Source: an uncultured virus (IMG/VR IMGVR_UViG_3300036985_007154) | Taxonomy: Duplodnaviria > Heunggongvirae > Uroviricota > Caudoviricetes | IMG/VR virus record: IMGVR_UViG_3300036985_007154 | Strand: one strand, 5' to 3' | Length of the DNA stretch: 64,000 bases | Shown here: one piece after another, positions 690-49,505 of the stretch | Layout: each line of letters begins with the position of its first letter | Position numbering within the stretch: position 1 is the first letter of the stretch | Translations under genes and position numbers: made by a program | The notes under the pieces: model-generated | Told to the model about the DNA's origin: nothing | Database searches by the model: none | Seen by the model: only the letters and a program-made list of their open reading frames with translations

Positions 690-763
690 GTCTCCGTAGC
701 TCAGCTGGATAGAGTCACGCACTTCTAATGCGTAGGTCACACGTTCGAATCGTGTCGGGGATA
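690..763 (+). tRNA. tRNA-Arg(UCU)
   Basis: Cloverleaf: acceptor GTCTCCG/CGGGGAT, anticodon arm ACGCA-CTTCTAA-TGCGT, T-loop TTCGAAT. Confidence 0.93.
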
Positions 764-796
764 CAAAAAAATATTTTACAAAATAAAAATATTTCT

Positions 797-815
797 TACC
801 TTTGAAGTAATTATA
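797..815 (+). promoter_or_regulatory. Bacteroidetes-type -7 element (TACCTTTG) plus a late-motif variant (TAATTATA) upstream of the leader ORF
   Basis: Matches the TAnnTTTG consensus at 797-804. Confidence 0.5.
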
Positions 816-821
816 GAAACA

Positions 822-914
822 ATGAGAACTACAGGTCAACATATTAACAGTAATATTCAACAAGAGAATTGTTGGTATGAAAGTATTTGCCCATGTAGTT
901 CGGAAGTCATATAA
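822..914 (+). CDS. putative attenuator leader peptide (30 aa, MRTTGQHINSNIQQENCWYESICPCSSEVI)
   Basis: Short ORF followed by a terminator; its 3' end (AGTTCGG, 897-903) is complementary to the terminator 5' arm. Confidence 0.55.
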   Translation: MRTTGQHINSNIQQENCWYESICPCSSEVI

Positions 915-948
915 GAAAATTTTTTTTACAAGTAAAAACTAATTTTTC

Positions 949-985
949 AAACCCCGAACTCTTAAAAAAAGTTTGGGGTTTTTTT
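949..985 (+). terminator. intrinsic terminator, probably a regulated attenuator
   Basis: Stem AAACCCCGAACT/AGTTTGGGGTTT followed by a T-tract. Confidence 0.8.
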
Positions 986-1016
986 ATGACTTCTTTTGTT
1001 CTTTGAAATATTGTAG

Positions 1017-1024
1017 TATCTTTG
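1017..1024 (+). promoter_or_regulatory. Bacteroidetes-type -7 promoter element upstream of tRNA-Glu
   Basis: TATCTTTG with TTTG about 20 nt upstream. Confidence 0.55.
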
Positions 1025-1036
1025 TAAGACAAACAA

Positions 1037-1113
1037 GCTCCGGTCGTCTAATTGGTTAGGACATCCCCCTTTCACGGGGAAGCTTACGGGTTCGAGTCCC
1101 GTCCGGAGTACCA
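1037..1113 (+). tRNA. tRNA-Glu(UUC), CCA encoded
   Basis: Acceptor GCTCCGG/CCGGAGT, arm TCCCC-CTTTCAC-GGGGA, T-loop TTCGAGT, 3' ACCA. Confidence 0.95.
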
Positions 1114-1123
1114 GTCACTTTAT

Positions 1124-1240
1124 AGTCAGGTGGTGGAATTGGTAGACACGGAGTTTAGCGTTACTGACATAGATAGGTAACTGGTCACGCAGCGAGATAG
1201 CGTACTCTTTCTATTACAGGTTCGAATCCTGTCCTGACCA
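1124..1240 (+). ncRNA. tRNA-like RNA with the anticodon loop replaced by a ~50-nt two-hairpin insert
   Basis: Acceptor GTCAGG/CCTGAC, Leu-like D-arm GGTGGAATTGGTAGACAC, perfect T-arm ACAGG-TTCGAAT-CCTGT; no 7-nt anticodon loop. Confidence 0.75.
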
Positions 1241-1306
1241 CGCAAAAAACAAATAAGATGGAGTTTCTTTACCCCGTTAGGGATGAGTTTTAGAAATCTA
1301 AAAATT

Positions 1307-1374
1307 AGTCAGGTGGTGTAAATGGCAGCACGCGGTGATTAACTGAAGAGCGGGTTAGAAACCCGTCCTGACAC
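1307..1374 (+). ncRNA. tRNA-like RNA with a shrunken anticodon arm
   Basis: Acceptor GTCAGG/CCTGAC, D-arm GTGT..GCAC, short stem CGGT-GATTA-ACTG, T-arm GCGGG-TTAGAAA-CCCGT. Confidence 0.65.
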
Positions 1375-1383
1375 CTTAACAAT

Positions 1384-1457
1384 GGTCAGATACCCAAGTG
1401 GCTTAAGGGGCTTGTCTGCAAAACAAGTATCCATCGGTTCGAATCCGATTCTGACCT
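1384..1457 (+). tRNA. tRNA-Cys(GCA)
   Basis: Acceptor GGTCAGA/TCTGACC, arm CTTGT-CTGCAAA-ACAAG, U73 discriminator. Confidence 0.95.
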
Positions 1458-1483
1458 CATTAACAAATAAATAAAAAAAAATT

Positions 1484-1792
1484 ATGAAACCAAGATTATC
1501 TAAAGATCAGAAAAAACAAAAAATGGTTATCGATTTGATAAACAAGATGTTCGAAATTGCTGGTCATCCTGTGACCTATGACGATATCAAGGACCGTAAG
1601 GATAGTTGGTATACTGATTGGACTATGACCATGGAACAAAACGACGAATGGAAAAAATGGGGTAAAAAATACCTTATGAAAGAACTTCGTATGTATGCTA
1701 AAATGGCTGAAAAAGAAATGTCGATGATTTCTTTGATGTGGGGACTAAAATTTAGTAACTTTGAACTCAATACTGTAGAAGATGACATTTAG
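1484..1792 (+). CDS. hypothetical protein (102 aa)
   Basis: ORF inside the tRNA cluster. Confidence 0.75.
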   Translation: MKPRLSKDQKKQKMVIDLINKMFEIAGHPVTYDDIKDRKDSWYTDWTMTMEQNDEWKKWGKKYLMKELRMYAKMAEKEMSMISLMWGLKFSNFELNTVEDDI

Positions 1793-1828
1793 TGAATTAG
1801 AATTAGAAACTTTAACCTACGAAACGAA

Positions 1829-2245
1829 ATGAAAATAGTAATTGTAAGCGGATATTTTAATCCTGTTCATAAAGGACATATTGAATATTTCAATAAATCC
1901 AAAGAACATGGTGATAAACTCTATGTGATTGTCAACAACGACAAACAGAGAGAGTTGAAAGGTAGTAAAGAGTTCCAAGATGAAGATGAAAGAATGTTTA
2001 TCATCCAAAACCTGAAAATGGTTGATAGAGTATTTCTATCAGTTGACACAGATAGAACTGTGTGTAATACAATCAGTATGATTCATTCTTTGGGGGATAG
2101 AGAGGACGAATTCCTATTCGCCAATGGTGGAGACCAAAACAATAATAGCATCCCTGAGACACCCATATGTGATTGGTTGGGGATTAAGTTGATTGATGGA
2201 CTTGGAGATAAAATCCAATCTTCGTCTTGGTTATTGAAGAAATAA
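1829..2245 (+). CDS. cytidylyltransferase-like protein (TagD/RibL/RfaE-II type, HIGH superfamily)
   Basis: SGYFNPVHKGH HIGH motif, FANGGD, C-terminal KIQSSSWLL. Confidence 0.9.
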   Translation: MKIVIVSGYFNPVHKGHIEYFNKSKEHGDKLYVIVNNDKQRELKGSKEFQDEDERMFIIQNLKMVDRVFLSVDTDRTVCNTISMIHSLGDREDEFLFANGGDQNNNSIPETPICDWLGIKLIDGLGDKIQSSSWLLKK

Positions 2246-2316
2246 GCATCTATGGTGAAATGGCATCATCCCGGTCTCCAAAACCGTTGTTCCAAGTTCG
2301 AGTCTTGGTGGATGTG
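2246..2316 (+). tRNA. tRNA-Trp(CCA)
   Basis: Acceptor GCATCTA/TGGATGT, loop CTCCAAA, T-arm CCAAG-TTCGAGT-CTTGG. Confidence 0.92.
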
Positions 2317-2328
2317 CAAAAGATATAT

Positions 2329-2461
2329 AGGTTGATTGGGGAATGATGATGTGAAGTAGTTGGTAGTTGTATAATAATAACATCGTCGGAGTTTGAACTA
2401 CCATAGTAATGCCAATCGTAAAAGGAGATGTCCACTGAACCATCTTCTCCTTTCCTAACCT
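2329..2461 (+). ncRNA. candidate structured (pseudoknotted) ncRNA between tRNA-Trp and tRNA-Tyr
   Basis: Five complementary helices, including crossing stems GATGATGT/ACATCGTC and TGGTAGTT/AACTACCA. Confidence 0.5.
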
Positions 2462-2462
2462 T

Positions 2463-2544
2463 GGGATCGTCGCATAGCGGCAATTGCTGGAGACTGTAAA
2501 TCTCCTCTCTTCGGAGTTCATAGGTTCGAGTCCTATCGGTCCCA
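2463..2544 (+). tRNA. tRNA-Tyr(GUA)
   Basis: Acceptor GGGATCG/CGGTCCC, arm GGAGA-CTGTAAA-TCTCC, long variable arm with a TTCG loop. Confidence 0.95.
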
Positions 2545-2549
2545 CATTT

Positions 2550-2620
2550 TGTCTTATGGTGTAACGGTAACACAATTGATTTTGGTTCAGTTATTTCAGG
2601 TTCGAATCCTGATGAGACAT
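2550..2620 (+). tRNA. tRNA-Gln(UUG)
   Basis: Acceptor TGTCTTA/TGAGACA (U1-A72), loop TTTTGGT, T-arm TCAGG-TTCGAAT-CCTGA. Confidence 0.92.
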
Positions 2621-2673
2621 CAAGTTATTCATGTTCCAAAACATTAAAAAAAAGTAAGTTTTGGAACATCAAT

Positions 2674-2758
2674 AGAGAGTTGCCTGAGTGGTTAAAGGAG
2701 CAGATTGCTAATCTGTCATCTCGAAAGGGATGCATTGGTTCGAATCCAATACTCTCTG
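2674..2758 (+). tRNA. tRNA-Ser(GCU)
   Basis: Acceptor AGAGAGT/ACTCTCT, arm GCAGA-TTGCTAA-TCTGT, long variable arm, G73. Confidence 0.95.
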
Positions 2759-2834
2759 CAATAACATTCTATGACGAAGGAACTCGATTGGGAACTGGAA
2801 GTGAGGGCACAATGCACATAGAATGTTATTTTAT

Positions 2835-2985
2835 TGTAAGGTGATGAAATTGGCAGACGTGCCCTCCTGTCTCGGGGGTGGGGATAAAGAAATAGATAAG
2901 TAATATGAGGGGGTAGACCACCAGCCGGCCGGCGATATGTTATTTGTTGAATCTCCTCGTGGTGGTTCGAATCCATCTCTTACAG
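2835..2985 (+). tRNA. tRNA-Asp(GUC)-like RNA with an ~80-nt variable region
   Basis: Acceptor TGTAAGG/TCTTACA plus G73, class II-like D-arm, arm CCCTC-CTGTCTC-GGGGG, T-arm GGTGG-TTCGAAT-CCATC; 151 nt in total. Confidence 0.7.
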
Positions 2986-2990
2986 CACAA

Positions 2991-3064
2991 TGGAATATAG
3001 CTCAGTTGGTTAGAGCGCTATCCTGATACGGTAGATGTCGATGGTTCGAGTCCATCTATTCCAA
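2991..3064 (+). tRNA. tRNA-Ile(GAU)
   Basis: Acceptor TGGAATA/TATTCCA, arm CTATC-CTGATAC-GGTAG. Confidence 0.93.
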
Positions 3065-5329: not shown

Positions 5330-5524
5330 TTAATTATTATCAAAGTTAGTTTTGTTTAATTCTTTTATGGTAATTTCATTGTGTTTCCACCTTTTCCAAG
5401 TTTCAAAATCTTTCAAAGATTCAAGTGTTTTTTCATGAACCAAAATAAAACCTTCGGGAGCGACTCCACCGAATTTACGAACTTCACCTTCTTCTTCCAA
5501 TATTTTTTTAATGTTAACTAGCAT
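5330..5524 (-). CDS. hypothetical protein (64 aa)
   Basis: ORF coupled to its neighbours. Confidence 0.65.
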   Translation of the reverse strand: MLVNIKKILEEEGEVRKFGGVAPEGFILVHEKTLESLKDFETWKRWKHNEITIKELNKTNFDNN

Positions 5525-6123
5525 GATAAATGTTTTATTATTTTTTGTTTAATACCACTTTGTTTTATTCCTTCCCAATCTCTCGGTGTCCATACGAAGT
5601 GTTCTAACCCCCAATCTCTGTCGAATGGACCATAAGAGCTGTTTGCGACATGAATACCCATGTGAAGGTCATCAATGGCAACCCAATGTGTAATTTCGGG
5701 ATGTGATTTTAGATAATCTTTAATTTCGAAGTGTCTTTCTTGTTCTCGACCATCGGTCCTATTCCAATCAAAATCAGACGGAACACGACCTTCATCTAAC
5801 CAATTTGTGTAATGGAATACTTCGGTGAATCCGATTGGTTTTTTGATGATACCTTGAGATGTGTAGTATTCCCCTAATTCTTCCAAATTAGCGTGTAATC
5901 TCCAATCGGAACTAACTACGATTTCAGCGCCTGTGGTTTCTAATATTTGATTTAGAACTTTTACCGCCTTTTTATCAAAATTATCAAAACGACATTCAAC
6001 AGGAATTGATGTTATATCCATAGACAATTTTTTCCCACCCCACTTATCTTGTTTTTTGTGGCGGGAACCCCAATTACTACTGAGGCAAATTACTCCATCA
6101 TTATCCAAAAATAAAATTCGCAT
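5518..6123 (-). CDS. HAD-family phosphatase (Swiss-Army-Knife RNA-repair-like HAD domain)
   Basis: LFLDNDGV, VVSSDWR, WVAIDD motifs. Confidence 0.85.
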   Translation of the reverse strand: MRILFLDNDGVICLSSNWGSRHKKQDKWGGKKLSMDITSIPVECRFDNFDKKAVKVLNQILETTGAEIVVSSDWRLHANLEELGEYYTSQGIIKKPIGFTEVFHYTNWLDEGRVPSDFDWNRTDGREQERHFEIKDYLKSHPEITHWVAIDDLHMGIHVANSSYGPFDRDWGLEHFVWTPRDWEGIKQSGIKQKIIKHLSC

Positions 6124-6508: not shown

Positions 6509-6549
6509 TTTGTAAATATAAAAAAAATCCTCCAGATATTCGAGGGATT

Positions 6550-7440
6550 TTAACTTATTATTTTTTTGAAAATTTTTTTGATTTTCATTTTGCATTCTCT
6601 GACACCAGCTTTGAGTGAGAGAACTCTCTTAACATTTGTTTCCTCAGGTTGAATTTTAATTTGAAGAACTTTATCTACTTCGTATTGTAAAAGTTCTTTG
6701 GAATTCGAAGAGGACACTTTATTGTTGAGAGCTCTGCCTACCTCCCTATTACGAGGAGTGTCAAAATTAAGGAATGAGGAGACCCCAAGTTTGAGTGCCT
6801 CTTCCATCGTAACAACTGCCGACAAATTGTCGACAGTTGTTGGGGACGCTTTAGATTCGAGAACTTCTTCTACTGGACGACTTCCTTGCAATCCCACGTT
6901 GCATTGTGTTGAAGACACCTCGCGTTTGAGAACCTCTTCCACCTGATTCTGATAGTCGATTTTGCTTTGTAGAGTTGAAAACACCTCGTGTTTGAGAACC
7001 TCTTCCACCCCTACATCCATTAGGGGAAATCCACTTAATGTTGAAGACACCCCGCGTTTGAGGACCTCTTCCACCGGTAAGTTGCTAAGGTAAGCATTTG
7101 GGTTTGTTGAGGACACCCCGCGTTTGAGGACCTCTTCCACCTTTCTGAACGAAATTGAAAGCCCTGATAAAGTTGAGGACACCCCGCGTTTGAGGACCTC
7201 TTCCACCCATTCCGCTATAACGGGTTCATATTCTAGCCGTTCCATCCCAAACAACGGAAAAAAATCGCGGAAGAATGAGTATCTCCACCATAGAGTCCCT
7301 GAACTTCTTAGTTCCAAATACCAAAACTTATTCGCACGATCGATAAACCAAATGGATTTATTATCATCCACAATGATTTCCGCCTGACCCAAATCTTGGT
7401 CTAATTTTTTGAATATAATTCGTTTTAATCTTTCGTTCAT
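6550..7440 (-). CDS. hypothetical protein: ~78-aa aromatic N-terminal domain followed by 22-aa units (VEEVLKRGVSST plus 10 variable residues)
   Basis: 296-aa ORF that stays open through the repeat array; TATTTTTG promoter element at 7463-7470 (-); terminator-like hairpin near 6524-6551. Confidence 0.8.
   Translation of the reverse strand: MNERLKRIIFKKLDQDLGQAEIIVDDNKSIWFIDRANKFWYLELRSSGTLWWRYSFFRDFFPLFGMERLEYEPVIAEWVEEVLKRGVSSTLSGLSISFRKVEEVLKRGVSSTNPNAYLSNLPVEEVLKRGVSSTLSGFPLMDVGVEEVLKHEVFSTLQSKIDYQNQVEEVLKREVSSTQCNVGLQGSRPVEEVLESKASPTTVDNLSAVVTMEEALKLGVSSFLNFDTPRNREVGRALNNKVSSSNSKELLQYEVDKVLQIKIQPEETNVKRVLSLKAGVRECKMKIKKIFKKIIS
6707..7207 (-). CRISPR. CRISPR-like array (36-nt repeats, 30-nt unique spacers) embedded in frame in a CDS; no cas genes in the window
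   Basis: Near-identical repeats at 7172-7207, 7106-7141, 7040-7075, 6974-7009 and 6908-6943 (+ strand GTTGARRACACCYCGYGTTTGAGRACCTCTTCCACC); degenerate copies at 6839-6874, 6773-6808 and 6707-6742. The repeat structure is certain; CRISPR function is inferred. Confidence 0.55.
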
Positions 7441-7598
7441 ATCGGTTGATGTCTATGTGATACAAAAATACTAATATTTTACGTAATTCAAAAATTATCA
7501 AAAGTTTTTTCACTTAACAACAACATAGCCATTTGATAATGTTGAAATTCAGGTTTGCGAGTGGGTTCCTCCTAATTATTGTTGATAAAATTTAAGAC

Positions 7599-10085
7599 AT
7601 GATTAAAAATCTATTTTTTTTACTCTTATTTCCATTAACGGTGTTTTCACAACAAAAACAAATAACCATCAATGGAACAACAAAATCAAAAACAGAAGAC
7701 ATTTATTTTGCTCACGTAACTTTCCAAGATGTTAGTGGTAATAAATTCACAACAATTTCTGATGAAAACGCAAAGTATAATGTTTCTCTCAATGAAGGAA
7801 CTTACGAAGTTAAAGGAACTTACATTGGATACAAAGATTTCGTAACCACCATTACTGTAACCACCGTTACTATCTTGGATATTATTTTTGAGCCAACCGA
7901 TACGGAGTTAAACGAAGTTTTAGTTCGAGGAACTGCACAAAAAGTCACAGATATATCGGTTATGAAATCTATACGAAATAATATTGTCGTATCCGATGGA
8001 TTATCAATAGAATTCATAAAGAAGACCCCCGATAGAAATTTGGGTGACGCATTGAAACGAGTAAGTGGTGTCACAATCCAAAATGACAAATTTGTTTTGG
8101 TTCGAGGGCTTGCCGATAGATATAATTCGGCATTATTGAATCAAACACCTTTACCCTCCACAGAACCCGATAGACGAGCATTCTCATTTGATATTATCCC
8201 AACTTCTTTGATTGATAATATAATGGTTTCCAAATCATTTTCGGCAAACCAACCAGGTGATTGGAGTGGAGGATTGGTTCAAGTATCGACAAAGGAGGTG
8301 TCCGACAATTTTTTGGACGTAAGCTTGGGGACGGGAATCGGATCTGTCTCGACTTTCCAAGACTTTAAACTGGTGGAATCGATCCCATTTCCGTTAACCT
8401 TTCCTTCCACATACAAATTCCGAATGAGCGGTAATGGTGATAAAAGATTATTCACAAAACAAATAGGAAACCCAACGGAAAATAGATTTCAATCCATACC
8501 AAACTTAAATGGAGGACTTTCATTTGGTTATGTAAAAAACAAATTCAATTCATTATTCAGTTCAACAATTCGAAACACAAATACTCTCAACAATGTTGAG
8601 AGAAAGGATTATCAATCTTCCACAGAACTGGCATACGATTATAATGATAGATTATACACCCAAAGATTTTCCACAAATGGATTATTAAACTTAACTTATT
8701 TGGGTAAAAACAAATATAGTTGGAAAACATTGGCAAACTTCCAAAAGGAAAGTTCATACCTGACAAGAGAAGGTCAAAACTTTGACAATGTTCAAGATGT
8801 GTTGAGTAATGCGTCAAACCATATCAATAACGTGGTAATCAACTCACAGGTTGATGGTAATATTGAAACTTTTGATTTCAATTTCGGATATAACTACATC
8901 TTCAGAGAACAACCTGATTATAGAATTAACCCAATCACCAAATCATTAGGTGTAAATGAACCATTTGCAACCGCATGGAGAGACACCTACAGATTTTGGA
9001 GTGTTATGGATGAGAATTCATTTAACGGAAACTTGAAAAAAGATTTGGGTAAATTCGAAGTGGGTGGAGGTTATTTGAAAAAGATTCGAGGATTTAGTGC
9101 AAGAGTTTTCAGATATCAAACAACGGATTTATTGGATGAAATCACCAACAATACAGATAGATACACCGCTGACTTTGATTTGGGTAATCTTTATACGATG
9201 TATGAGAACGAAATCGGAAAATGGAAAATCAATACAGGCGTAAGAGGTGAATACAACTTGTTTGATGTTGAAACCGCAGATTTCAGTGGTCAAAAGGTAA
9301 ATGTTGATAGAACATATTTGGACATTCTTCCATCATTGAACCTTTCTTATAACTTGGAGAAGACAAAATATAGATTCTCTTTGAGTAAGACCTTGGCAAG
9401 ACCAGAGTTCAGAGAAGTTGCAAACTTTGCATATTATGACTTTGTTAGAAACGCACAAATATTAGGAAACTCCAACTTGAAAAAAACCGACATATACAAT
9501 GTTGATTTGAAATACGAGTTATATCCTTCAAACACAGAAAACATTTCTCTCTCATTTTTTGGTAAAAATTTCGTAAACCCAATTGAACAAATTGTTGCCG
9601 ATGGGTCAGTTCCATCCAATTTACTTTTAACTTATGCAAATCCTGAATCAGCACTTGTATATGGTGTTGAAATGGAAGTGAGAAAAAGAATAAATGGATG
9701 GTTCGATTTTTACACAAACGCTTCAGTTATGAAATCTGAAGTTGATATGAATGGTGTAAAAAGACAATTACAAGGTCAATCCAATTATATGATTAACTCA
9801 GGGATAAACTTTAATAAGAAAAATAATACTTTGAACTTAACCTACAACAGAATCGGTGAAAGAATATCTGCGGTCGGTTTCCAAGGTTATCCCGATATCT
9901 TTGAAAATAGTAGAGACGTGTTGGATATTACATTCTTACGTAAACTTCCAAAAGGAGAATTGAAACTGGCAATAGGAGATATCTTCGCACAGCCATCAAT
10001 AAACTATCAAAAAATTTCAAATCGTAACTTAATAAACACAAATAACGAAACAACAGTTTCATTAACCTTAAATCTAAATTTATGA
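7599..10085 (+). CDS. TonB-dependent outer-membrane receptor (CarboxypepD_reg-like N-domain, plug, beta-barrel)
   Basis: Signal peptide; plug motifs ALKRVSGVTI, VLVRGLADRYN, FSFDIIP; barrel motif TLARPEFRE; Bacteroidetes-style architecture. Confidence 0.92.
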   Translation: MIKNLFFLLLFPLTVFSQQKQITINGTTKSKTEDIYFAHVTFQDVSGNKFTTISDENAKYNVSLNEGTYEVKGTYIGYKDFVTTITVTTVTILDIIFEPTDTELNEVLVRGTAQKVTDISVMKSIRNNIVVSDGLSIEFIKKTPDRNLGDALKRVSGVTIQNDKFVLVRGLADRYNSALLNQTPLPSTEPDRRAFSFDIIPTSLIDNIMVSKSFSANQPGDWSGGLVQVSTKEVSDNFLDVSLGTGIGSVSTFQDFKLVESIPFPLTFPSTYKFRMSGNGDKRLFTKQIGNPTENRFQSIPNLNGGLSFGYVKNKFNSLFSSTIRNTNTLNNVERKDYQSSTELAYDYNDRLYTQRFSTNGLLNLTYLGKNKYSWKTLANFQKESSYLTREGQNFDNVQDVLSNASNHINNVVINSQVDGNIETFDFNFGYNYIFREQPDYRINPITKSLGVNEPFATAWRDTYRFWSVMDENSFNGNLKKDLGKFEVGGGYLKKIRGFSARVFRYQTTDLLDEITNNTDRYTADFDLGNLYTMYENEIGKWKINTGVRGEYNLFDVETADFSGQKVNVDRTYLDILPSLNLSYNLEKTKYRFSLSKTLARPEFREVANFAYYDFVRNAQILGNSNLKKTDIYNVDLKYELYPSNTENISLSFFGKNFVNPIEQIVADGSVPSNLLLTYANPESALVYGVEMEVRKRINGWFDFYTNASVMKSEVDMNGVKRQLQGQSNYMINSGINFNKKNNTLNLTYNRIGERISAVGFQGYPDIFENSRDVLDITFLRKLPKGELKLAIGDIFAQPSINYQKISNRNLINTNNETTVSLTLNLNL

Positions 10086-11278
10086 AAAAACTATTAACAA
10101 TCTTATTAGCATTAGGACTTTTCAGTTGTGAAAAGAATCTTGGGGGTGAAGAAGAACCAATTAACGTTCCAACCACTACCACACTTACGGGTAATATAAA
10201 CACAACAACAACTTTGACATCTGACAAAGTTTGGACATTGAAAGGATATGTTTATGTAACCGATGGAGCAAAACTTATCATCCAACCTGGAACTACCATA
10301 GTTTCTGACGTGGCTGAAAAGGGAGCATTATGTATCGAAAGAGGTTCGCAAATTATTGCGGAAGGAACCCAATCCAAACCTATCGTATTTACGTCTGGAA
10401 GACCCGAGGGACAACGAACTCCTGGTGATTGGGGTGGTATAGTGATTTTAGGTAGAGCGAAGACAAACCGTTCTTCTGAACCTACAATCGAAGGTGGAAT
10501 CGGAAGACCTTATGGAGGAACAAATGATTCCGATAACAGTGGAGTATTAAGATTTGTCAGAATTGAATACGCAGGTATAGCAGCACTTCCAAACTCTGAA
10601 ATAAACGCATTGACTCTCGGAGGTGTAGGAAACGGAACAATTCTTGAAAACATCCAAACAATATACGCTAACGATGACGCATTCGAATTCTTTGGTGGAA
10701 ACGTAAATGGTAAAAATCTTTATTCATTCGCAACCGCAGATGATGATTTCGATTTTGACTTTGGTTATACAGGAACAATCACTAACGGAGTGGCAAAAAG
10801 AGACCCTCAATTCGTAGATAGTGGTGACGCTGGAAATGGCGTGGAATGTGATAATGATGGAACAGGATCCGCAGCACAACCTTACACACACCCAAAACTT
10901 TTCAATATGATTTTAGTTGGACCAAATGTATCTACCGCATTAGCGAACCACAATTTAGGTTTGAGATTCAGAAGATCTACCCAATTCACAATGAAGAATA
11001 GTGTAGTTTGGGGATGGATGAAAGGTGGATTAAGTTTAGAAAGTAATGAAACCACTCAATTTGTTAAAGACGGAGTATCTATATTTGAAAATAACTCAGT
11101 TGGTACATTCAATCCTACTTTGAACTTTATTAGTAAAGCAACAACAATTTTGACAAGTGATCAACTTAAAACTTTGGCCCTTTCAAAAAGTAATAAGGAA
11201 ATTGATGTTGTAATACCTGAATTAGATAAACCTATATGGGTTAATGGATGGACAAGATTTCCATCTAAAGGAAACTAA
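10082..11278 (+). CDS. beta-helix-like surface lipoprotein partnered with the TonB-dependent receptor
   Basis: Lipobox FSC; PGDWGGIVILG, DDAFEFFGG, DDDFDFDFGY; start overlaps the receptor stop. Confidence 0.85.
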   Translation: MKKLLTILLALGLFSCEKNLGGEEEPINVPTTTTLTGNINTTTTLTSDKVWTLKGYVYVTDGAKLIIQPGTTIVSDVAEKGALCIERGSQIIAEGTQSKPIVFTSGRPEGQRTPGDWGGIVILGRAKTNRSSEPTIEGGIGRPYGGTNDSDNSGVLRFVRIEYAGIAALPNSEINALTLGGVGNGTILENIQTIYANDDAFEFFGGNVNGKNLYSFATADDDFDFDFGYTGTITNGVAKRDPQFVDSGDAGNGVECDNDGTGSAAQPYTHPKLFNMILVGPNVSTALANHNLGLRFRRSTQFTMKNSVVWGWMKGGLSLESNETTQFVKDGVSIFENNSVGTFNPTLNFISKATTILTSDQLKTLALSKSNKEIDVVIPELDKPIWVNGWTRFPSKGN

Positions 11279-11309: not shown

Positions 11310-11318
11310 ATTTGATAG

Positions 11319-11729
11319 TGGAGTAGCGCAGATTCGAACTGCGGTCTTGCTCATCTTGACAATAAATGCCTACACGTTTAGGTCAAGGTTTGTTATACCT
11401 TCCGAAATATTTGGTTCCTTTTTAACATCGTTACCAACAACTGTGTCGAGTTCACTTTTACTAAGGTAGTACTCTGAACGAGACCTTTTGATACGCTTTG
11501 GGTGGTATCCACCTTGGAGGGCTTCTGTTCCGAGGTTATATGCCCATTCGACCCGACGTTATATCTACTAATTAAGCAGTTACAACAGACGCTTCTCTAG
11601 TTAAACCTAGAGCAGCCATCTTAGCAAGAGTATTGCCGGTTACTTTCTTCACCATAGATTTAAGTCATAGATGAATTCTGACTACGTGCCACTTATCTCC
11701 AACAATGCCAATCTATACCTTTCTACCCC
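11319..11729 (-). ncRNA. ssrA: tmRNA
   Basis: 5' GGGGTAG pairs with 3' CTACTCC-A giving G3:U70; T-arm CGCAG-TTCGAAT-CTGCG; tag ORF 11637-11572 after TAACC; TACATTTG promoter at 11739-11746. Confidence 0.92.
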
Positions 11730-14341: not shown

Positions 14342-16354
14342 TTACCTACCTTTCTTGACTACTTTGACTACTTCATCTTCGACTTTAATCACGTAGGTTT
14401 TTCCTACTATAATTTTGTCGGTCAGAACTTCTTCAGATAATAAGTCTTCAACTTTATCCTGAATCGCTCTCTTGAGTGGTCTTGCACCGTATACCTCATC
14501 ATATCCGATTTTTGAGAGGTAATTCAAAAGTGATTCATCATAAGTAATCTTATACTTCATTTCGTCAAGACGCTTCATCAACTTCTTAAGTTCGATGTCA
14601 GTGATTTTCTTAATATCCTCTTGAGATAGAGAATTAAAAACGATGGTGTCATCAATACGATTGATAAACTCTGGTGAGAAGAAATTTTTCATTTCCTTCA
14701 TCAAGATATCCTTCTTCGCTTCTTCATTACTGTAGGTATTGTTAGAAAATCCAATACCAGTACCGAAGTCTTGTAGTTTTTTAACTCCAAGATTTGATGT
14801 CAAGATAATCAAGGTATTTTTGAAGTTAATCTTTCTACCCAAACTATCTGTAACGTGACCATCGTCCAAGATTTGAAGTAATACTGCGAATACGTCCTTA
14901 TGAGCTTTTTCAACCTCATCAAACAAGATAACAGAGTAAGGTTTGTTCTTAACTTTCTCGGTCAACAATCCACCTTCTTCGTATCCAACATAACCTGGAG
15001 GTGCTCCAACCAATTTGGATACGGTGTGTTTCTCTTGGTACTCGGACATATCCACACGGATTAGTGCGTCCTCACTTCCAAACATTTCTTTTGCAAGTTG
15101 TTTTGCGAGGTGAGTTTTACCGACACCTGTTGAACCCAAGAAAACGAATGAACCAATTGGACGATTTGGGTCTTTGATACCAAGTCGGTTTCTCTTGATA
15201 GATTTTGCAACCTTGATAACCGCGGCATCCTGACCAATAACAGTTCCAACAATGTGTTTATCCAAGTTCAACAATGCTTTGGTGTCATCCACAGACATTT
15301 TATTGACAGGGATTTTGGTCATGTTGGAAACAACATCATAAACATCTTCCAAACTAATCTTCTGTTTGTCTTTGGACATTTGTTCTTCAAACTTTTGTTT
15401 TTCTTGTTCCAATTTGTCCAACAACTTTTTCTCCTTGTCTCGGAGTTGTGCCGCTTGTTCGTAATTCTGTTTTTTCACAACGTCCAACTTCTGTTGTTTC
15501 AGTTCAGCAGCTTTACGCTTCAACTCTTCGATTGCTTCAGGAACCTTAAGTTCGGTCTGCATTCTAGCTCCAACTTCATCCAAGATGTCGAATGCTTTGT
15601 CAGGGAATTCACGGTCGGTGATATATCTATCCGCCAACTTAACACAAGCTTCAATGACTTCATCGGAATAAGTCACTTTGTGATATGTTTCGTATTTGTC
15701 CCGAACATTTTTCAAAATTTCAATTGTTTCAATCACAGTAGATGGTTCAACAATTACTTTTTGAAATCTACGCTCTAACGCTCCATCCTTTTCGATGTTT
15801 TTTCTGAACTCATCCAAAGTGGTCGCTCCGATTACTTGTAGTTCACCACGTGCCAATGCTGGTTTGAAAATGTTGGAACCATCCATCGAACCTGAGGAAT
15901 TTCCTGAACCAACCAACGTATGAATCTCATCAATGAATACGATGATATTAGGATTAACTTGAAGTTCTTCGATGATAACCTTCATTCTTTCTTCAAATTG
16001 TCCACGGTACTTTGTACCAGCAACAACTGAAGTTAGGTCAAGATTAACCAATCTTTTATCCAAGAGATTACGAGGACAATCACCATTAACAATTTTCATC
16101 GCCAAACCTTCAACAATTGCAGTTTTACCACAACCAGGTTCACCAAGAATAATTGGGTTATTTTTCTTTCTTCGGGAAAGAATTTGAGCGATTCGTAGAA
16201 TCTCTCGATCTCTTCCGATGACAGGGTCCAATTTACCCGCCTCTGCAAGTTTATTCAAATCTCTACTGAAATTGTCTAGCACAGGCGTCGAGGTATCTCC
16301 TGACTTCTGTCTTTTACTCATCATTTTGTCTTCGTCGTCCATTAAGTCGTTCAT
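14342..16354 (-). CDS. clpC: ClpC-type AAA+ ATPase lacking the N-terminal Clp repeat domain
   Basis: Two NBDs ([29 protein letters not shown]), UVR-type M-domain (YEQAAQLRD), IGF loop, GARPL. Confidence 0.92.
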
Positions 16355-16532
16355 ACGTTTTTTAGTTTTTACAAAGTAATAACAATTTTTATTCTTATCC
16401 AAATGATTTGACAAATTGTCAGAAAATATTTATTTTTATTAAATCTTTTACTGACATAATGTCATAGAATCACTATCGGCATAAATCTTGGAACAAAGAT
16501 AACAAATAAACTTAAAATAAAAAACTAAAATT

Positions 16533-40780: not shown

Positions 40781-41527
40781 TCAGTTTTTGATTTTCGATT
40801 GAATTACGAGGTACAATTTTTTGAACCTTTTTATAGAACTACGTATTTCTTTTGTACTCAAATTAGTCATTTCTCTTAAAGATAAGAGAATTACGTTTTT
40901 GTTGAATTTATTATTATCCGTACCTGAGAATATTGATTCGTAATTATCAAACAAATCAATTAGTGCGTAACCTAATTTCTTTTCATTATCGTTTAGTTGT
41001 TCTGATTCGATATAATCTTTTAACTCCTCCAAATATTTATTGATAACATAATCAGTTTCAATAATATCGTCATCTATTCGATAAGACATATCAGGTCTTT
41101 CTTCAAGACTTGATGAAATATCTTCATATGATATTTTTCTATTAGTTTCTTTTTGGTCTTTTATAATCTGTCCCATAAGATAATTTTTACAGATAGTACC
41201 AAAATAAGAATAAGCCTTTTTATTTTTATCTGGCTTAAACTTATCAACCTTAGTCATGAGAAAGGAATGAGTATCTGTATGAATTTCCTCAAAATTCATA
41301 TCTTTACGATATAACTTGTATCGTCGTATAATTGAGGAAATCATTTTATCTAAAGGTAATTTCAAAAATTGATTATAAATTTTATTTTTTTCGTATGAAG
41401 TTTCGGCAATTAGAAATTTTCTAACCGCCTCCTCTTCTCTTACATCAAAATAATTTTCTTTAACCGCTTTTCTACCTCGTTTTTTTGATAAAACATCCTC
41501 TGTTACAGCAGAGAGTGATTCTTGCAT
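40781..41527 (-). CDS. phage sigma factor (T4 gp55-like, late transcription)
   Basis: KFKPDK..KAYSYFGTICKNYL resembles the gp55 region-2 motif. Confidence 0.7.
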   Translation of the reverse strand: MQESLSAVTEDVLSKKRGRKAVKENYFDVREEEAVRKFLIAETSYEKNKIYNQFLKLPLDKMISSIIRRYKLYRKDMNFEEIHTDTHSFLMTKVDKFKPDKNKKAYSYFGTICKNYLMGQIIKDQKETNRKISYEDISSSLEERPDMSYRIDDDIIETDYVINKYLEELKDYIESEQLNDNEKKLGYALIDLFDNYESIFSGTDNNKFNKNVILLSLREMTNLSTKEIRSSIKRFKKLYLVIQSKIKN

Positions 41528-42333
41528 TAAGCATTATCTAATTGATATTTTATGGACCTATCGTCCGTGAAAAAATATTCTCTTTTTGCGGTTTGAATCC
41601 AAAATTTTACTTCATCTTCAATCATTTTGTCTTCACCAAATTTGTAGTTCCAAAAGATGGAACCTTCTCTAAGGTTGACATGCTTGTATCCAAGTCTTGG
41701 TATTGTCATTATTGAGATTGAGTTGTATGTCAGTCTAAGTAAAAATTCATAAATAAATGTCAATTTAACTGATGGTTTGAAGCCTCCAAAATCTTCGATA
41801 ATTGATTTTTTTAATACAGAACCTGCAGTTTGAAAATTTTGATATTCTTGTAGGGTTTCATTAGTTAAAATACCCATTTCTTGTGAAAAGTTTGCCGCGA
41901 AAGTTGCCTCATTTGTAAACCCTGCAAATAATCCCTTCTCATCCGTTTCAACAACCACAGGTAAAAACATTTGAACATCAGGAAATGATTCAACATATTT
42001 TTGAACATTTTTGAACCAAATTGAAGAATATTCGTCATCAAACTCAAAAAGAGAAACCCAAGTTCCCTTTGCGTTTTCGATTCCATAATTTACTTGACTC
42101 GCATAACTTGGGTCTTTGTCCCACAATAATTTTGTGACATTCAAATCCCCAAAATCATAAGAATTTAGATGGTCAATTAAAGATTCTTCTTGTGTATGTA
42201 CGATAACTAATTCTTCGAAACCAACTGTTTGATTTTTTAGAGATGAAATTGCCTTTTCGAAATATTCGTCAAAATCTTTTGCTTTGGAAGATTTTATGGG
42301 AAGTATTACTGATAGTGATAATGTATTATTCAT
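41527..42333 (-). CDS. GT2-family glycosyltransferase
   Basis: LSVILP, NYGIENAKG.W, FEFDD. Confidence 0.8.
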   Translation of the reverse strand: MNNTLSLSVILPIKSSKAKDFDEYFEKAISSLKNQTVGFEELVIVHTQEESLIDHLNSYDFGDLNVTKLLWDKDPSYASQVNYGIENAKGTWVSLFEFDDEYSSIWFKNVQKYVESFPDVQMFLPVVVETDEKGLFAGFTNEATFAANFSQEMGILTNETLQEYQNFQTAGSVLKKSIIEDFGGFKPSVKLTFIYEFLLRLTYNSISIMTIPRLGYKHVNLREGSIFWNYKFGEDKMIEDEVKFWIQTAKREYFFTDDRSIKYQLDNA

Positions 42334-42334
42334 A

Positions 42335-43387
42335 TTATTCTTCTGTTTTGGAAATTTGATTTTCGAATGCATCCGCTCTAGCGGTTAAATAACCATCGAA
42401 TAATGAAACGATAGATGATTCAAACTTTTGTTTATCCGTATATCTTTCAACGGTTTCCTTCATTTTTTCATAGATTTGTGGGTCAATATTATCTTCCAAC
42501 CAATTTTGGGCATAATCCGCAATTAAATCAGGTAATAAAGTTTGATCTGTTACCCAAATACCATTGTCTTCACTCATCCAATCAGGAGATAGGTTTGGAA
42601 CTTTTCCAATGACTGGTACATTTGACTTCATAGATTCCAAAGGAAACGTTCCAAATCCACTGTGGTCATCAATCCAAACACTTAAGAAACAGTCTCTTAA
42701 AGAATTTGCAAATTCTTTTTCTGACAAACCTCTCAAATCTCTAAAAGTAAACCATCTGTATTGTGGAAACTTTAAATAAAATGTTTTAATTATATTAATT
42801 GCATCACTTTGTTCTTTTGTGTGAACACCAATGATTGGCATTGCAGGTGTTGACTTAGGTGTGAATTCCTTACCGATTAAAGGGTCAATAGTATCAAATG
42901 ATACTTGTCTCATAACCCTTTCAATATATTCTTTTTGTTTGCTCGAAGTCGTAATACATTTTAAGAATCCGAATTGATTCCATGTTTGACCTGGTTGTAA
43001 AGTTTCCAACATGTGAGCATATTGTTGAGTTAATACAATTTTAGCACAAGGAAGTTGTTTTACTTGGTCCATAACAAACCCGAATACTTCAGGGATAACT
43101 AAAAAATCTTCAGGTGAAATTTCTAAATTTTGACCTTCGATTGCTCTGTGAGGTAATGACATATATTCTTCATCCAACCATGCGACAACACCTGCATAGT
43201 CAGGTTTTTCGTGAAGTATAATTGGATTAAATCCATTGTCTTTTAATGTTTTCGCCATTTGATATATGAGTCTTACAGATGCCTTTGCGTTACCTTTAGT
43301 ATCTTGAACTAAAAAATATATTCTGGCTTGTTTTTCTCTTAGTATCGTAATGGATTGTTTTACTTTGTCTTGAAGTTGGTTTTCCAT
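42335..43387 (-). CDS. GT-B (GT4-like) glycosyltransferase
   Basis: GFGTFPLESM...PVIG motif. Confidence 0.75.
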   Translation of the reverse strand: MENQLQDKVKQSITILREKQARIYFLVQDTKGNAKASVRLIYQMAKTLKDNGFNPIILHEKPDYAGVVAWLDEEYMSLPHRAIEGQNLEISPEDFLVIPEVFGFVMDQVKQLPCAKIVLTQQYAHMLETLQPGQTWNQFGFLKCITTSSKQKEYIERVMRQVSFDTIDPLIGKEFTPKSTPAMPIIGVHTKEQSDAINIIKTFYLKFPQYRWFTFRDLRGLSEKEFANSLRDCFLSVWIDDHSGFGTFPLESMKSNVPVIGKVPNLSPDWMSEDNGIWVTDQTLLPDLIADYAQNWLEDNIDPQIYEKMKETVERYTDKQKFESSIVSLFDGYLTARADAFENQISKTEE

Positions 43388-43388
43388 A

Positions 43389-43673
43389 TTAATAATGATT
43401 GATAAGTTTTTTATTTAATAAACTATTAAACGCGATTTTGAATGGGATACTTACATTAGAGTTTGACTTCATACCAAGCTTTTCGTCTACGACTTCTTGC
43501 TCGTTAAGGACCGTGTCTAACAACAACTTAACCATTTCAAATTTAATAATGTTAATTTTTGTTTCTGTTACTCCTGATTCTGAATCAGATGAATCTTCAT
43601 CATGGATCATATCAAGGTAGCTTTCAATTTCATCTAAGTCGATAAAATAATTTTCTCCTAATACTTGTATCAT
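43389..43673 (-). CDS. hypothetical protein
   Basis: Coupled ORF. Confidence 0.75.
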   Translation of the reverse strand: MIQVLGENYFIDLDEIESYLDMIHDEDSSDSESGVTETKINIIKFEMVKLLLDTVLNEQEVVDEKLGMKSNSNVSIPFKIAFNSLLNKKLINHY

Positions 43674-44269
43674 GTTATTTCTTGTATTTTTGTTTTTAAC
43701 TCCTTAAGACTTGAAATATTAAAATCGGATTCAATGTCTTCGTTATATATTGTATTGAATTTAATCACCATTTTGTTTTTTGGATAATTCAATAATAGTT
43801 TAGGATTAGCGGTAAGTAAAATGTCTACAGAATCCCACAATGAATTAACTGTACTTTCACTATAAAATTTTACAGTTTCAACTAAACAACCAAACTTAGA
43901 AATGAAAAATAATGACGCAGGTTTTGATTTACCTATTTCATCCGAAACAACAATAATGTCATGAGATTCTCTCATGTCTAAGTAAAATTCATTTAATTCT
44001 ACAAGACCTGAAGGTTCCACAGAACCAGCATGTCCGAAAATTTCCATAGTATGTTCCTTATATAGAAAATCATATAATTCATTTTCACTCCTAAATTTCA
44101 AATGATTCGAAATGTTTAATGTGGTTAGTTCAGATAAAACCTCATATTTAAAATCATCTTCTTCATTTTCATCACGAAATGGATTATTAAGATACCATTT
44201 CTCATACTCTTGTTGTATTTTTTTTAGAGTATCTCTTAAAACTCCATTTAGCTCAATTCCAATTCTCAT
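43670..44269 (-). CDS. HAD-fold 5'(3')-deoxyribonucleotidase-like protein with an altered motif I
   Basis: MRIGIELNGVLRD (ExN in place of DxD). Confidence 0.6.
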   Translation of the reverse strand: MRIGIELNGVLRDTLKKIQQEYEKWYLNNPFRDENEEDDFKYEVLSELTTLNISNHLKFRSENELYDFLYKEHTMEIFGHAGSVEPSGLVELNEFYLDMRESHDIIVVSDEIGKSKPASLFFISKFGCLVETVKFYSESTVNSLWDSVDILLTANPKLLLNYPKNKMVIKFNTIYNEDIESDFNISSLKELKTKIQEIT

Positions 44270-45000: not shown

Positions 45001-45028
45001 TTTTTGTAATTTAATCTTAGTTTGAGAC

Positions 45029-45409: not shown

Positions 45410-45410
45410 A

Positions 45411-47311: not shown

Positions 47312-47373
47312 ATTTTATCTTTTTACGTAAACACCACCGATATACCGTTGGGACTTGTATTAATATTCATAAT

Positions 47374-48198: not shown

Positions 48199-48224
48199 TT
48201 TTTTATTTTTTTATTTTTTTATTT

Positions 48225-48827: not shown

Positions 48828-48858
48828 ATTTTTTTTAATAATTTAATTGTATGTGTTC

Positions 48859-49494: not shown

Positions 49495-49505
49495 AGTTTT
49501 TTTTA

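Follow-up and report, generated by a model that had tools for sequence, protein, structure and literature searches.

Can a CRISPR-type array be part of a protein, and, if so, what writes it there? The common view is that CRISPR arrays are memory banks that do not code for protein, and hypervariability of microbial proteins is ascribed to point mutation, recombination cassettes and retroelement mutagenesis. The question was raised by an open reading frame (ORF) in a 64,000-nucleotide stretch of DNA (hereafter the window), in which the first-pass annotation had seen a repeat-spacer array of CRISPR proportions translated in frame. The window belongs to a T4-like jumbo phage from a lake and not to a bacterium, in line with that annotation's guess of a phage, and its core idea, an array of CRISPR type that is defined at the DNA level and also translated, holds. 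The features of the locus are as follows.

6538..7514, no strand assigned: indel cassette, whole gene plus flanks, absent from the syntenic site in the complete relative G002
7463..7492, minus strand: candidate Bacteroidota-type promoter (TTTG, 18 nt, TATTTTTG), picked by eye
6550..7440, minus strand: array ORF of 296 aa, comprising the N-terminal domain, the in-frame repeat-spacer array and a basic C-terminal tail
7207..7440, minus strand: head domain, codons 1-78, folded (helix, four strands, two helices)
7207, minus strand: head/repeat 1 junction; repeat 1 begins on the final G of the Trp78 codon (TGG)
7172..7207, minus strand: repeat 1, 36 nt, the junction or 'leader-proximal' copy, sense GGTGGAAGAGGTCCTCAAACGCGGGGTGTCCTCAAC
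7142..7171, minus strand: spacer 1, 30 nt, peptide LSGLSISFRK
7106..7141, minus strand: repeat 2, same as repeat 1 (100%)
7076..7105, minus strand: spacer 2, 30 nt, peptide NPNAYLSNLP
7040..7075, minus strand: repeat 3, 1 mismatch (97%)
7010..7039, minus strand: spacer 3, 30 nt, peptide LSGFPLMDVG, common to the window and loci L013 and L014
6974..7009, minus strand: repeat 4, 5 mismatches (29 nt aligned at 90%)
6944..6973, minus strand: spacer 4, 30 nt, peptide LQSKIDYQNQ, present in many arrays
6908..6943, minus strand: repeat 5, 3 mismatches (92%)
6875..6907, minus strand: spacer 5, 33 nt, peptide QCNVGLQGSRP, trailer unit
6599..6874, minus strand: decayed part of the array with old spacers (6809-6838, 6743-6772 and others)
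6839-6874, 6773-6808 and 6707-6742, minus strand: decayed repeats
About 6644-6679 and about 6599-6634, minus strand: weaker relic repeats
6550..6598, minus strand: basic C-terminal tail ECKMKIKKIFKKIIS plus stop codon, conserved in the main clade

The five 36-nt repeats and the four spacers of exactly 30 nt that had been annotated were reproduced, as were the 33-nt spacer and the three decayed repeats beyond it, to which weaker relics down to about position 6599 can be added. The repeat is indeed GC-rich in an AT-rich genome (22 of 36 bases, 61%, vs 33% for the window). The array units of 119 parsed homologues include the peptide unit of spacer 5 105 times. In a set of 55 distinct spacers, drawn from 28 loci in addition to the window, the DNA of spacer 1 was seen in the window array only; its peptide occurs in 3 parsed homologue proteins. 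At the syntenic site, G002 (326 kb) has 27 bp instead of the window's 976 bp. The candidate promoter was picked against the Bacteroidota consensus, and a promoter scan returned a sigma-70-like site at 7501-7473. A terminator scan found no terminator after the array ORF; by eye, an imperfect hairpin and then a T run were noted 3' of it.

The head domain was predicted by AlphaFold2 from 45 sequences with a pLDDT of 95.6, and in the model the VEEVLK motif of the repeat continues helix 3 of the head. No match to the fold was obtained (best Foldseek E 0.21; VIA-align Z<5), the domain had no family or match in Pfam, PHROGs or the ESM Atlas, and tblastn against 50,697 phage records gave no match. On the best explanation of the data, the protein consists of a folded head and a disordered tail showing unrelated peptides between short helical VEEVLK motifs; our guess at its role would be a multivalent binder or a decoy in phage-host conflict.

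The borders of the repeat were examined at the level of single bases. As the first-pass annotation had pointed out, they are sharp in the DNA: the first base of the repeat is the wobble G of five different codons (TGG, AAG, CCG, GGG and CAG), and the base just past the repeat is a variable Thr wobble. The borders do not fall between codons, and the final codon of a spacer invariably has the form NNG. When unit 1 was compared with unit 2 in 34 arrays, identity was 74-100% over the repeat (positions 1-36) and 12-44% over the remainder (positions 37-66), the mean between unrelated spacer pairs being 26%. Across the family, both ends of the repeat are conserved down to the wobble bases, at 91-100% over the first 12 nt and 91-98% over the last 5 nt, and synonymous sites vary freely in the 45 nt upstream of repeat 1. 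Wobble bases in the middle of the repeat are conserved to only 58-77%; there the amino acids are kept with free synonymous change, which indicates that selection acts at the protein level too. Junction-proximal repeats are exact copies, synonymous sites included, for example in loci L003, L008 and L026. The partial palindrome that had been suggested within the repeat does not translate into an unusual fold, the repeat RNA folding no better than its shuffles (z = -0.54 sense, +0.36 antisense). Rfam assigned neither CRISPR-DR nor any other family to the array, whether at gathering thresholds or at E<=10.

The gene is one of a large family in uncultured T4-like lake jumbo phages. Of 7,999 candidates scored, 381 were homologues at E<=1e-3, with lengths that step by 22 aa, and the head domain family comprised 394 cluster representatives at the same threshold, 22 being the best period in most of the representatives listed. 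Arrays of period 66 occur in most lineages, often with several paralogues per genome. The hosts are probably Bacteroidota, and the nearest cultured relatives (portal) include Flavobacterium phages. When GTDB genomes were scanned for the head domain, only two stretches came back, both from Leptospira; each is antisense to a membrane-protein ORF, and we regard them as chance.

The homologues display CRISPR-like population dynamics. In array maps of the 119 parsed homologues the order of the trailer units is conserved, novel units lie at the head end and internal deletions occur; new units adjoin the head between identical repeat copies and old units are shared and decayed, as seen in these proteins and in the DNA of 29 loci. 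The differences between strains at the N-terminal-domain end and the stop-free units for which the first-pass annotation had proposed to look were thus both found in relatives. Whole-unit duplication and block shuffling occur occasionally (P0003, P0098, P0112 and P0020).

Spacer length is tightly set (156 units of 30 nt, 12 of 33 nt and few others), and neighbouring spacers are no relatives of each other: they are 28% identical, vs 26% for random pairs and 89% for the flanking repeats. One spacer pair has 17 nt in common. Tandem Repeats Finder did not call the array, as expected if spacers are unrelated. These observations bear on whether this could be an ordinary tandem-repeat protein, grown by slippage or unequal crossover, with diversifying selection on the decapeptide and gene conversion of the constant part. 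Such a protein had been expected to keep its repeat as amino acids with free synonymous change and to have spacers that are diverged copies of one another; the former is what the middle of the repeat does, and the latter was not seen. A constant motif kept as protein across lineages, the occasional duplication and shuffling of units and the spacer pair just mentioned would all suit this explanation, and false CRISPRs inside genes are common (PMC5294841). Nevertheless, a border that is a step function out of codon phase, the lack of likeness between adjacent spacers, the silence of Tandem Repeats Finder and a spacer composition foreign to the phage (see below) all argue against it, and we consider it very improbable.

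The reading frame is kept open through the array. In 76 arrays, 316 of 317 strict repeats precede the first in-frame stop; no in-frame stop was present in 55 spacers, vs 17-21 of the 55 in the other frames, and none in a second set of 82, vs 26-50 of the 82. With the array kept open and read as protein, each 30-base insert adds ten amino acids. Shared old spacers have a pN/pS of 0.27 and the head one of 0.25, ratios pooled over non-independent pairs (92 synonymous vs 89 non-synonymous differences). Rare frameshifted alleles were found (P0123, P0375 and P0377), which would be expected with occasional insertions of 28-32 bp, and some sublineages stop inside a former spacer (RMIFEC-stop, VRRSF-stop), so that translation does not invariably run through the whole array. 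Variants of the gene were also present in metatranscriptome contigs from three runs of three studies, in which DNA carry-over is possible and no RNA ends are shown; one of these contigs, 846 nt long, covers most of the ORF. One further metatranscriptome run held no variant.

As to where the spacers come from, their GC content is 0.42, vs 0.35 for stop-free phage 30-mers (55% of random phage 30-mers are stop-free), and their codon-position composition is foreign to the phage. The amino-acid composition of the decapeptides correlates with that of base-composition random peptides at r=0.82 and with that of phage proteins at 0.75. Non-templated random synthesis of spacers was set aside because their dinucleotide odds ratios are those of natural DNA (TA 0.68, CG 0.82, CC 1.20). 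The phage itself was likewise rejected as source: none of 39 spacers matched its own phage record, none of 137 matched G002 outside G002's own array, and no second copy of a spacer was found in the phage. A protospacer search had been proposed by the first-pass annotation, and for the spacers tried it yielded nothing in INPHARED, PLSDB or IMG/VR: five array queries against 50,697 phage records (INPHARED) and one against 72,556 plasmids (PLSDB) gave nothing below E=1, and an IMG/VR scan with three spacers returned 0, 0 and only the source array. For reference, the protospacer flanking motif of Flavobacterium columnare is NNNNNTAAA.

One possible explanation for these data is a functional orphan CRISPR array, whose transcript is processed and used with host Cas9 or Cas13b and whose translation is incidental or shields the RNA, the peptides having no role. 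The DNA-level conservation of the repeat ends would follow naturally from this, the lack of own-phage matches would be expected if self-targeting guides are lethal, and the metatranscriptome variants give it weak evidence; huge phages, too, often carry compact arrays without Cas1, Cas2 and Cas4, for which use of host Cas has been proposed (PMC7162821). It does not account for an open frame in nearly all repeats, for the low pN/pS of shared spacers, for a repeat middle that keeps its amino acids under free synonymous change or for the constant fusion to a conserved folded domain. Nor was there any protospacer match for the spacers tried, any special fold of the repeat RNA or any tracrRNA-like anti-repeat in the window, G001 and G002. 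We regard this explanation as improbable.

The search for cas1, cas2 and reverse transcriptase (RT) genes, also proposed earlier, came back empty in the phage records examined: family searches returned no Cas1 in six records, one of them 100% complete, and no Cas2 or RT in five. Likewise, no RT, integrase, transposase or Cas1-like gene was found by the six-record family searches together with Pfam scans of most window ORFs of at least 100 aa, 68 G001 ORFs and 145 of 309 listed G002 ORFs (the first 100 kb of G002 being covered by the Cas1, Cas2, Cas9 and RT family searches), and the scanned ORFs of these three held no CRISPR-associated Pfam family. No neighbour gene was conserved beside the arrays in 25 loci; many phage ORFs and array neighbours belong to no known family.

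The explanation that we prefer, with a probability of roughly 45%, is that integration of the Cas1-Cas2 type, performed by the host machinery, adds peptide modules to a phage gene that is translated. New 66-bp units would arise at the head/array junction, where the 36-bp junction repeat would be duplicated and 30 bp of natural non-phage DNA, presumably from the host, inserted; such a combination of duplication and insertion would be the footprint of Cas1-Cas2 integration. As the phages lack cas1 and cas2, the machinery would be that of the host, acting in trans on a phage sequence that looks like a leader and repeat. Each insertion would add 22 residues, 12 constant and 10 new, since 36+30=66 is a multiple of three. 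Insertions that bear a stop or shift the frame would be purged, and the retained decapeptides would evolve under purifying selection, which in turn suggests that the array works as protein. In F. columnare, adaptation in trans is known to depend on cas1, the II-C module serving a second array, and GTTGT is common to both loci at the leader-distal repeat end (PMC8092290). The family repeat has the sense end ACAAC, which is this GTTGT motif, and the window clade ends in TCAAC (GTTGA), with 4 of its 5 bases; it is from this 5-nt motif and from the geometry that we infer the link to a host adaptation module. An additional scenario, which we hold as tentative, is that a Cas1-Cas2-type integrase grows a heritable, polar library of random decapeptides in the phage protein, to be retained or lost by selection, and that the same DNA may double as guide RNA with host Cas, making the array dual-coded.

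Several points count against host integration: the protospacer searches were negative for the spacers tried, the window's own repeat departs from GTTGT by one base, and some sublineages stop inside a former spacer. A broad and old family would need compatible machinery in many hosts, and if integration takes place in infected cells, phage DNA would be expected as a major spacer source, as it is in F. columnare (PMC8092290); with no phage-derived spacers seen, purging or a source bias must be assumed. Alternatively, a phage-intrinsic mechanism other than Cas1-Cas2 would recognise the repeat ends and add the 66-bp units, the likeness to CRISPR being convergent. The architecture is universal in a family of phages that is both deep and wide and in which genomes carry several paralogues, as would suit a mechanism that moves with the phage itself; many phage ORFs, moreover, belong to no known family. 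On the other hand, the six-record searches and the Pfam scans brought up no candidate enzyme and the 25 loci no conserved neighbour, and duplication of a 36-bp target combined with a 30-bp ruler is known from CRISPR adaptation only. We consider an intrinsic mechanism unlikely.

That the repeat ends are conserved down to their wobble bases throughout the family also implies that the phage benefits from keeping a DNA or RNA motif, as it would if the gene were an anti-CRISPR decoy: a leader-repeat mimic that soaks up the adaptation complex, or whose RNA soaks up Cas effectors in the manner of Racrs, the added units being scars. Phage-encoded repeat mimics do exist in the form of Racrs (PMC10651486), but a pure decoy need not stay translated, its old spacers would escape purifying selection, and lytically infected cells would rarely survive to use new spacers; such a decoy is thus highly unlikely.

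A reading at the level of the peptide was considered as well. Cyanobactins carry hypervariable cassettes between nucleotide-identical recognition sequences, and the layout described here resembles theirs: in a RiPP-like multi-core precursor, the head would be the leader and the constant 12-mers would serve for recognition, while the decapeptides would be hypervariable cores, to be excised or cross-linked. In agreement with this, constant and variable modules alternate behind a long conserved leader, and the constant motif has invariant Glu and Thr/Ser residues. Yet the 25 loci show no modifying enzyme, protease or transporter conserved beside the genes, Pfam recognised none of these around the window gene and the cores share no conserved residue, which makes a precursor of this type extremely improbable.

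To return to host integration as the preferred explanation, its consequences would be considerable. If host adaptation enzymes do the inserting, phages would be using an immune integrase of the host to generate new protein sequence, or would be acting as a sink for it, and random DNA would enter proteomes as ready-made modules. Whichever enzyme is responsible, an array with full CRISPR-like anatomy and dynamics is kept open across a broad gene family of jumbo phages, and those inserts that are retained behave like peptides under selection. Such loci will be mis-annotated by CRISPR finders and by gene callers alike. No description of translated CRISPR arrays was found in the open-access literature searched, and a 2024 review of CRISPR in mobile elements contains 'open reading frame', 'translated' and 'in-frame' 0 times.

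Compared with known systems, the locus shares with a generic CRISPR array its near-identical direct repeats, unique spacers of constant length and polar variation, but no cas1 or cas2 was found in the phage records searched. Rickettsia palindromic elements are selfish repeats inserted in frame into genes, and they and RiPP cassettes are, like the present repeats, DNA-level elements with sharp borders that are tolerated in reading frames; they are not, however, known to show a 36-bp duplication with 30-bp unique inserts or polar growth. A diversity-generating retroelement differs by its RT, of which five records held none, and by its template repeat; no second copy of any spacer was found in the phage. 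False CRISPRs such as SdrC share the repeat-spacer look inside an ORF without cas genes nearby, but have low spacer diversity and are positive in Tandem Repeats Finder (PMC5294841), whereas the present array has unrelated spacers and polar polymorphism and is not called by the Finder. Racrs are likewise phage-borne mimics of host CRISPR repeats, but are small, untranslated non-coding RNAs, usually with single repeats, and form no polar arrays (PMC10651486). The orphan arrays of huge phages are similarly compact, sit in jumbo phage genomes and have no Cas1, Cas2 or Cas4; they are described as non-coding guide arrays with spacers that match other phages or host genes (PMC7162821), whereas the present arrays are in frame within a protein family, with spacers lacking a known target.

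The type VI-B label put forward by the first-pass annotation does not hold as membership. Type VI-B repeats are 36 nt long, as here, with complementary 5'-GUUG/CAAC-3' ends, poly-U in an open loop and a defined hairpin, in loci with cas13b and csx27 or csx28 nearby (10.1101/092577). The phage repeat reads GGUG...CAAC in sense and GUUG...CACC in antisense, with one proper end per strand; its sense strand has GGUG and not GUUG at the 5' end, no U run or poly-U loop and no fold better than that of its shuffles, and the scanned ORFs of the window, G001 and G002 matched no CRISPR-associated Pfam family.

In F. columnare, II-C and VI-B loci both have 36-bp repeats, and new spacers are mostly 30 bp long (range 28-32) (PMC8092290). 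The phage array resembles these arrays in repeat length, predominant spacer length and the GTTGT motif, and also in growing from the leader end, where the first repeat is duplicated; like the array there that is served by the Cas1 of another locus, it has no cas1 and cas2 of its own (PMC8092290). It differs in being phage-borne, inside a conserved stop-free ORF in which the 'leader' is coding sequence, and in the GGTG 5' end and missing poly-U loop of its repeat. Finally, neo-CRISPR arrays arise by off-target spacer integration (Nivala et al. 2018, as described in 10.1101/148544), a Cas1-Cas2 site at a non-CRISPR sequence growing into an array much as is proposed here; there, it was the own genome of E. 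coli with induced machinery, and here it is a conserved, selected and translated family of phage genes.

The array-bearing gene and its intact repeats lie as follows.

6550-7440, minus strand: array-bearing ORF, 296 aa (ORF reading)
7172-7207, 7106-7141, 7040-7075, 6974-7009 and 6908-6943, minus strand: 36-nt repeats, sense GGTGGAAGAGGTCCTCAAACGCGGGGTGTCCTCAAC (sequence comparison)

Strict 66-nt periodicity sets in at the end of codon 78, where the N-terminal head ends. The repeats are set apart by unique 30-nt spacers; the next spacer is 33 nt long, and beyond it the repeats become ever more decayed, to about 6599. The repeat has a G+C content of 61%, compared to 33% for the window; its first base is the wobble G of the codon before it (TGG, AAG, CCG, GGG, CAG), and the first base past it is the variable wobble position of a Thr codon. 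The first-pass annotation had described most of these features: its 30-nt spacer coordinates were matched exactly, and the G+C-rich repeat in an AT-rich genome, the wobble-G start with a variable base after the repeat, and the polar decay away from the head were all observed again. The presence of an in-frame repeat-spacer array within this ORF is confirmed. Tandem Repeats Finder did not report the array in the window, and RNA folding of the repeat yielded nothing unusual. One old spacer (TVDNLSAVV, 6811-6841) contains a near-perfect 15+15-nt palindrome, 93% complementary, with 1 nt between its arms.

A word-indexed search returned 381 homologues, whose lengths differ in steps of 22 residues, and a full HMMER scan that used the head domain as query gave 394 cluster representatives at E<=1e-3, most of those listed displaying period-22 arrays; a lineage-specific 12-residue motif, [VL]E[EDGS][VT][LI][NKQ]x[GK]Vx[ST]T, is followed by ten variable residues. 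Array maps were parsed for 119 of the 120 homologous proteins listed. These differ hardly at all in the head or the C-terminal tail and share the old units QRNHMNDCDE, QCNVGLQGSRP and TVDNLSAVVT in conserved order, and the head-adjoining units vary by strain, as had been predicted; there are 50 spacer families, with internal deletions and some block shuffling. Repeats near the head/array junction are identical even at synonymous sites (e.g. in homologous loci L003, L008 and L026), the expected product of first-repeat duplication. Broken alleles exist and are rare: P0123, P0375 and P0377 read one repeat in a shifted frame, and a few sublineages stop inside a former spacer, RMIFEC* or VRRSF* (P0316, P0323, P0343, P0346, P0349, P0365, P0369). 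As the head-end units differ between the RMIFEC* alleles P0316 and P0323, and among the VRRSF* alleles, unit gain seems to continue after truncation.

Between the first and second units of 34 arrays, positions 1-36 were 74-100% identical and positions 37-66 were 12-44% identical. Neighbouring spacers shared 28% identity, compared to 26% for random pairs; that spacers are diverged copies of one another, named beforehand as a refuting outcome, was thus not borne out. Spacer length was 30 nt in 156 units, 33 nt in 12 and different in a few. As earlier claimed, no spacer contained a stop in the coding frame (0/55 and 0/82), compared to 17-21/55 and 26-50/82 for the other five; among random phage 30-mers, a stop-free share of only 55% is expected. 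Across 76 distinct arrays, 316 of 317 strict repeats precede the first in-frame stop, the lone exception lying at the stop itself, and 29 of 29 full-head DNA loci, fetched by the head domain alone to counter gene-calling bias, were open from head to stop or, in two cases, to the contig end.

Spacer G+C was 0.42 (n=121), compared to 0.35 for stop-free phage 30-mers, and the codon-position values (0.53/0.39/0.44) are not adapted to phage. Dinucleotide odds ratios resemble those of natural DNA (TA 0.68, CG 0.82, CC 1.20) and so speak against untemplated synthesis. None of 39 spacers matched its own record outside the arrays (four phage records, 46-100% complete), and 0/137 matched the related phage G002 outside its own array. 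For the spacers tried, the protospacer search that the first-pass annotation had proposed gave no match among phages, among plasmids or in IMG/VR. The lack of self-derived spacers calls for an account: either guides that match the phage itself would be purged, a sign of guide activity, or spacers would be drawn from host DNA alone.

The first 12 nt of the repeat (GGTGGAAGAGGT) are 91-100% conserved across lineages and the last five (ACAAC) 91-98%, wobble included, whereas mid-repeat wobble conservation is only 58-77%, with the encoded amino acids kept; synonymous sites are free to vary in the 45 nt preceding repeat 1. This contrast indicates nucleic-acid-level constraint on the repeat ends and protein-level constraint on the middle. 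The middle shows the kept amino acids and free synonymous change that had been named as the mark of an ordinary repeat protein, a reading we hold to be quite improbable. Wobble-level conservation at the ends suggests an advantage to the phage in retaining the repeat site. In pooled, non-independent pairs, pN/pS was 0.27 for shared old spacers, 0.25 for the head and 0.65 for repeats beside old spacers; such purifying selection on old peptides, together with the strictly open frame, suggests that the array product matters as protein. An array acting as guides only would suit a purge of self-matching spacers and would leave this apparent protein role aside; we consider it unlikely.

AlphaFold2 predicted the head confidently (pLDDT 95.6) as one helix, four strands and two helices, the VEEVLK motif completing the last helix; no solved structure resembling this fold was found. 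In the full-length model the array scored a pLDDT of 26-50 (low confidence), with short helices on the constant motif, and is probably disordered. A RiPP-like precursor would be in keeping with variable peptides behind a constant head and appears far-fetched. The strand antisense to the head coding sequence (L001:247-291, a homologous locus; window 7124-7387, plus strand) is similar to a portion of a membrane protein of Leptospira (KEYLHHSVPELL), a likeness taken as a chance product of pattern scanning.

The window is phage DNA. Its Pfam matches include a T4-type large terminase, gp20 portal, prohead protease, gp23 capsid protein and PhoH, besides a ClpB-like ATPase and a long glycosyltransferase cluster; Rfam matched nine tRNAs and one tmRNA.

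690-3064 and 11316-11729: nine-tRNA cluster, and tmRNA on the minus strand (Rfam)
5518-6123: HAD domain of 'Swiss Army Knife' RNA-repair type (Pfam)
7599-11278: TonB-dependent receptor (CarboxypepD_reg, Plug and beta-barrel domains), then a 398-aa ORF without known family (Pfam)
14342-16414: ClpB-like double AAA ATPase (Pfam)
41527-56774: glycosyltransferases, sugar epimerases/dehydratases, FkbM methyltransferases and UDP-glucose dehydrogenase (Pfam)

One tRNA match is unusually long (117 nt, weak, 1124-1240). The sugar-gene run, adjoined by a dUTPase/dCTP-deaminase-like gene, may serve DNA or surface modification. Related phages encode ClpP, DnaJ, RNA ligase and a cyclic-phosphate receiver domain. 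The closest cultured portal relatives are a Microcystis phage, Flavobacterium phages (38% identity) and Rhodothermus phage RM378; these, and the Bacteroidota-type receptor domains adjoining the array gene, make a Bacteroidota host likely.

Homologues were found on contigs up to 343 kb and on IMG/VR records, and a viral-contig scan gave 43 loci on large phage contigs, with two to four arrays side by side in some genomes. Two related records (G003:C1:500-10150 and G005:C1:105670-106900) show tandem runs of up to four paralogues, all bearing arrays and all on the same strand; at 10 of the related loci compared, array paralogues lie amid numerous small paralogous ORFs whose N-termini resemble MKxIITE. 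G002 (326,291 bp, rated 100% complete) is syntenic with the window in blocks of 78-100% identity, mostly 84-93%. There, 27 bp (163682-163709) occupy the place of window 6538-7514, a stretch covering the complete array gene and, on its flanks, promoter-like and T-run sequence; this is an insertion/deletion between close relatives, and a G002 paralogue lies 49 kb from the empty site. Judged by this syntenic gap, the array gene is an accessory cassette.

By Pfam, no cas gene, integrase or transposase was found among most window ORFs of at least 100 aa (for cas genes, as first annotated), in 68 ORFs of the related record G001 or in 145 ORFs of G002. The proposed wider search, run on related records, was equally negative: Cas1 was absent from six phage records, the complete one included, and Cas2 and reverse transcriptase from five. 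A Cas9 model matched only small HNH endonucleases, below cut-off. No anti-repeat was found, and no conserved gene lay beside the arrays among the loci compared. A phage-borne mechanism of unknown kind would have no conserved neighbour to point to and is rather unlikely. A decoy would draw on the conserved repeat ends, would leave the open frame to one side, and is improbable.

The reading we favor, tentatively and with a probability of roughly 0.45, is that Cas1-Cas2-type integration by host enzymes in trans builds the translated phage array. The footprint is that of such an integrase: the duplicated target is one repeat long, inserts are measured off at 30 bp, growth is polar, and the inserted pieces of natural DNA are unrelated. 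With a unit length (66) divisible by three, insertions would preserve the frame, and selection would weed out any that bring in a stop or have an odd length. That host enzymes would act in trans we infer from the fit to the Flavobacterium module and from phages without cas genes. In the literature, arrays without adaptation genes are frequent in huge phages and may use host Cas (PMC7162821), and new arrays can be seeded by off-target integration (Nivala et al. 2018, via 10.1101/148544).

Type VI-B repeats, to which the phage repeat had been likened, are described in 10.1101/092577 as 36 nt long with GUUG/CAAC ends and a poly-U loop; only the length and one end of the phage repeat agree, the other end and the loop do not. 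For F. columnare, PMC8092290 gives a length of 36 bp for the II-C and VI-B repeats alike and of mostly 30 bp for new spacers (range 28-32); the VI-B array gains spacers via the II-C Cas1 in trans, and they derive about evenly from phage and host DNA. Both F. columnare repeats share GTTGT at the leader-distal end, and the phage family repeat, read from leader to array, ends in ACAAC, the same motif at the same end.
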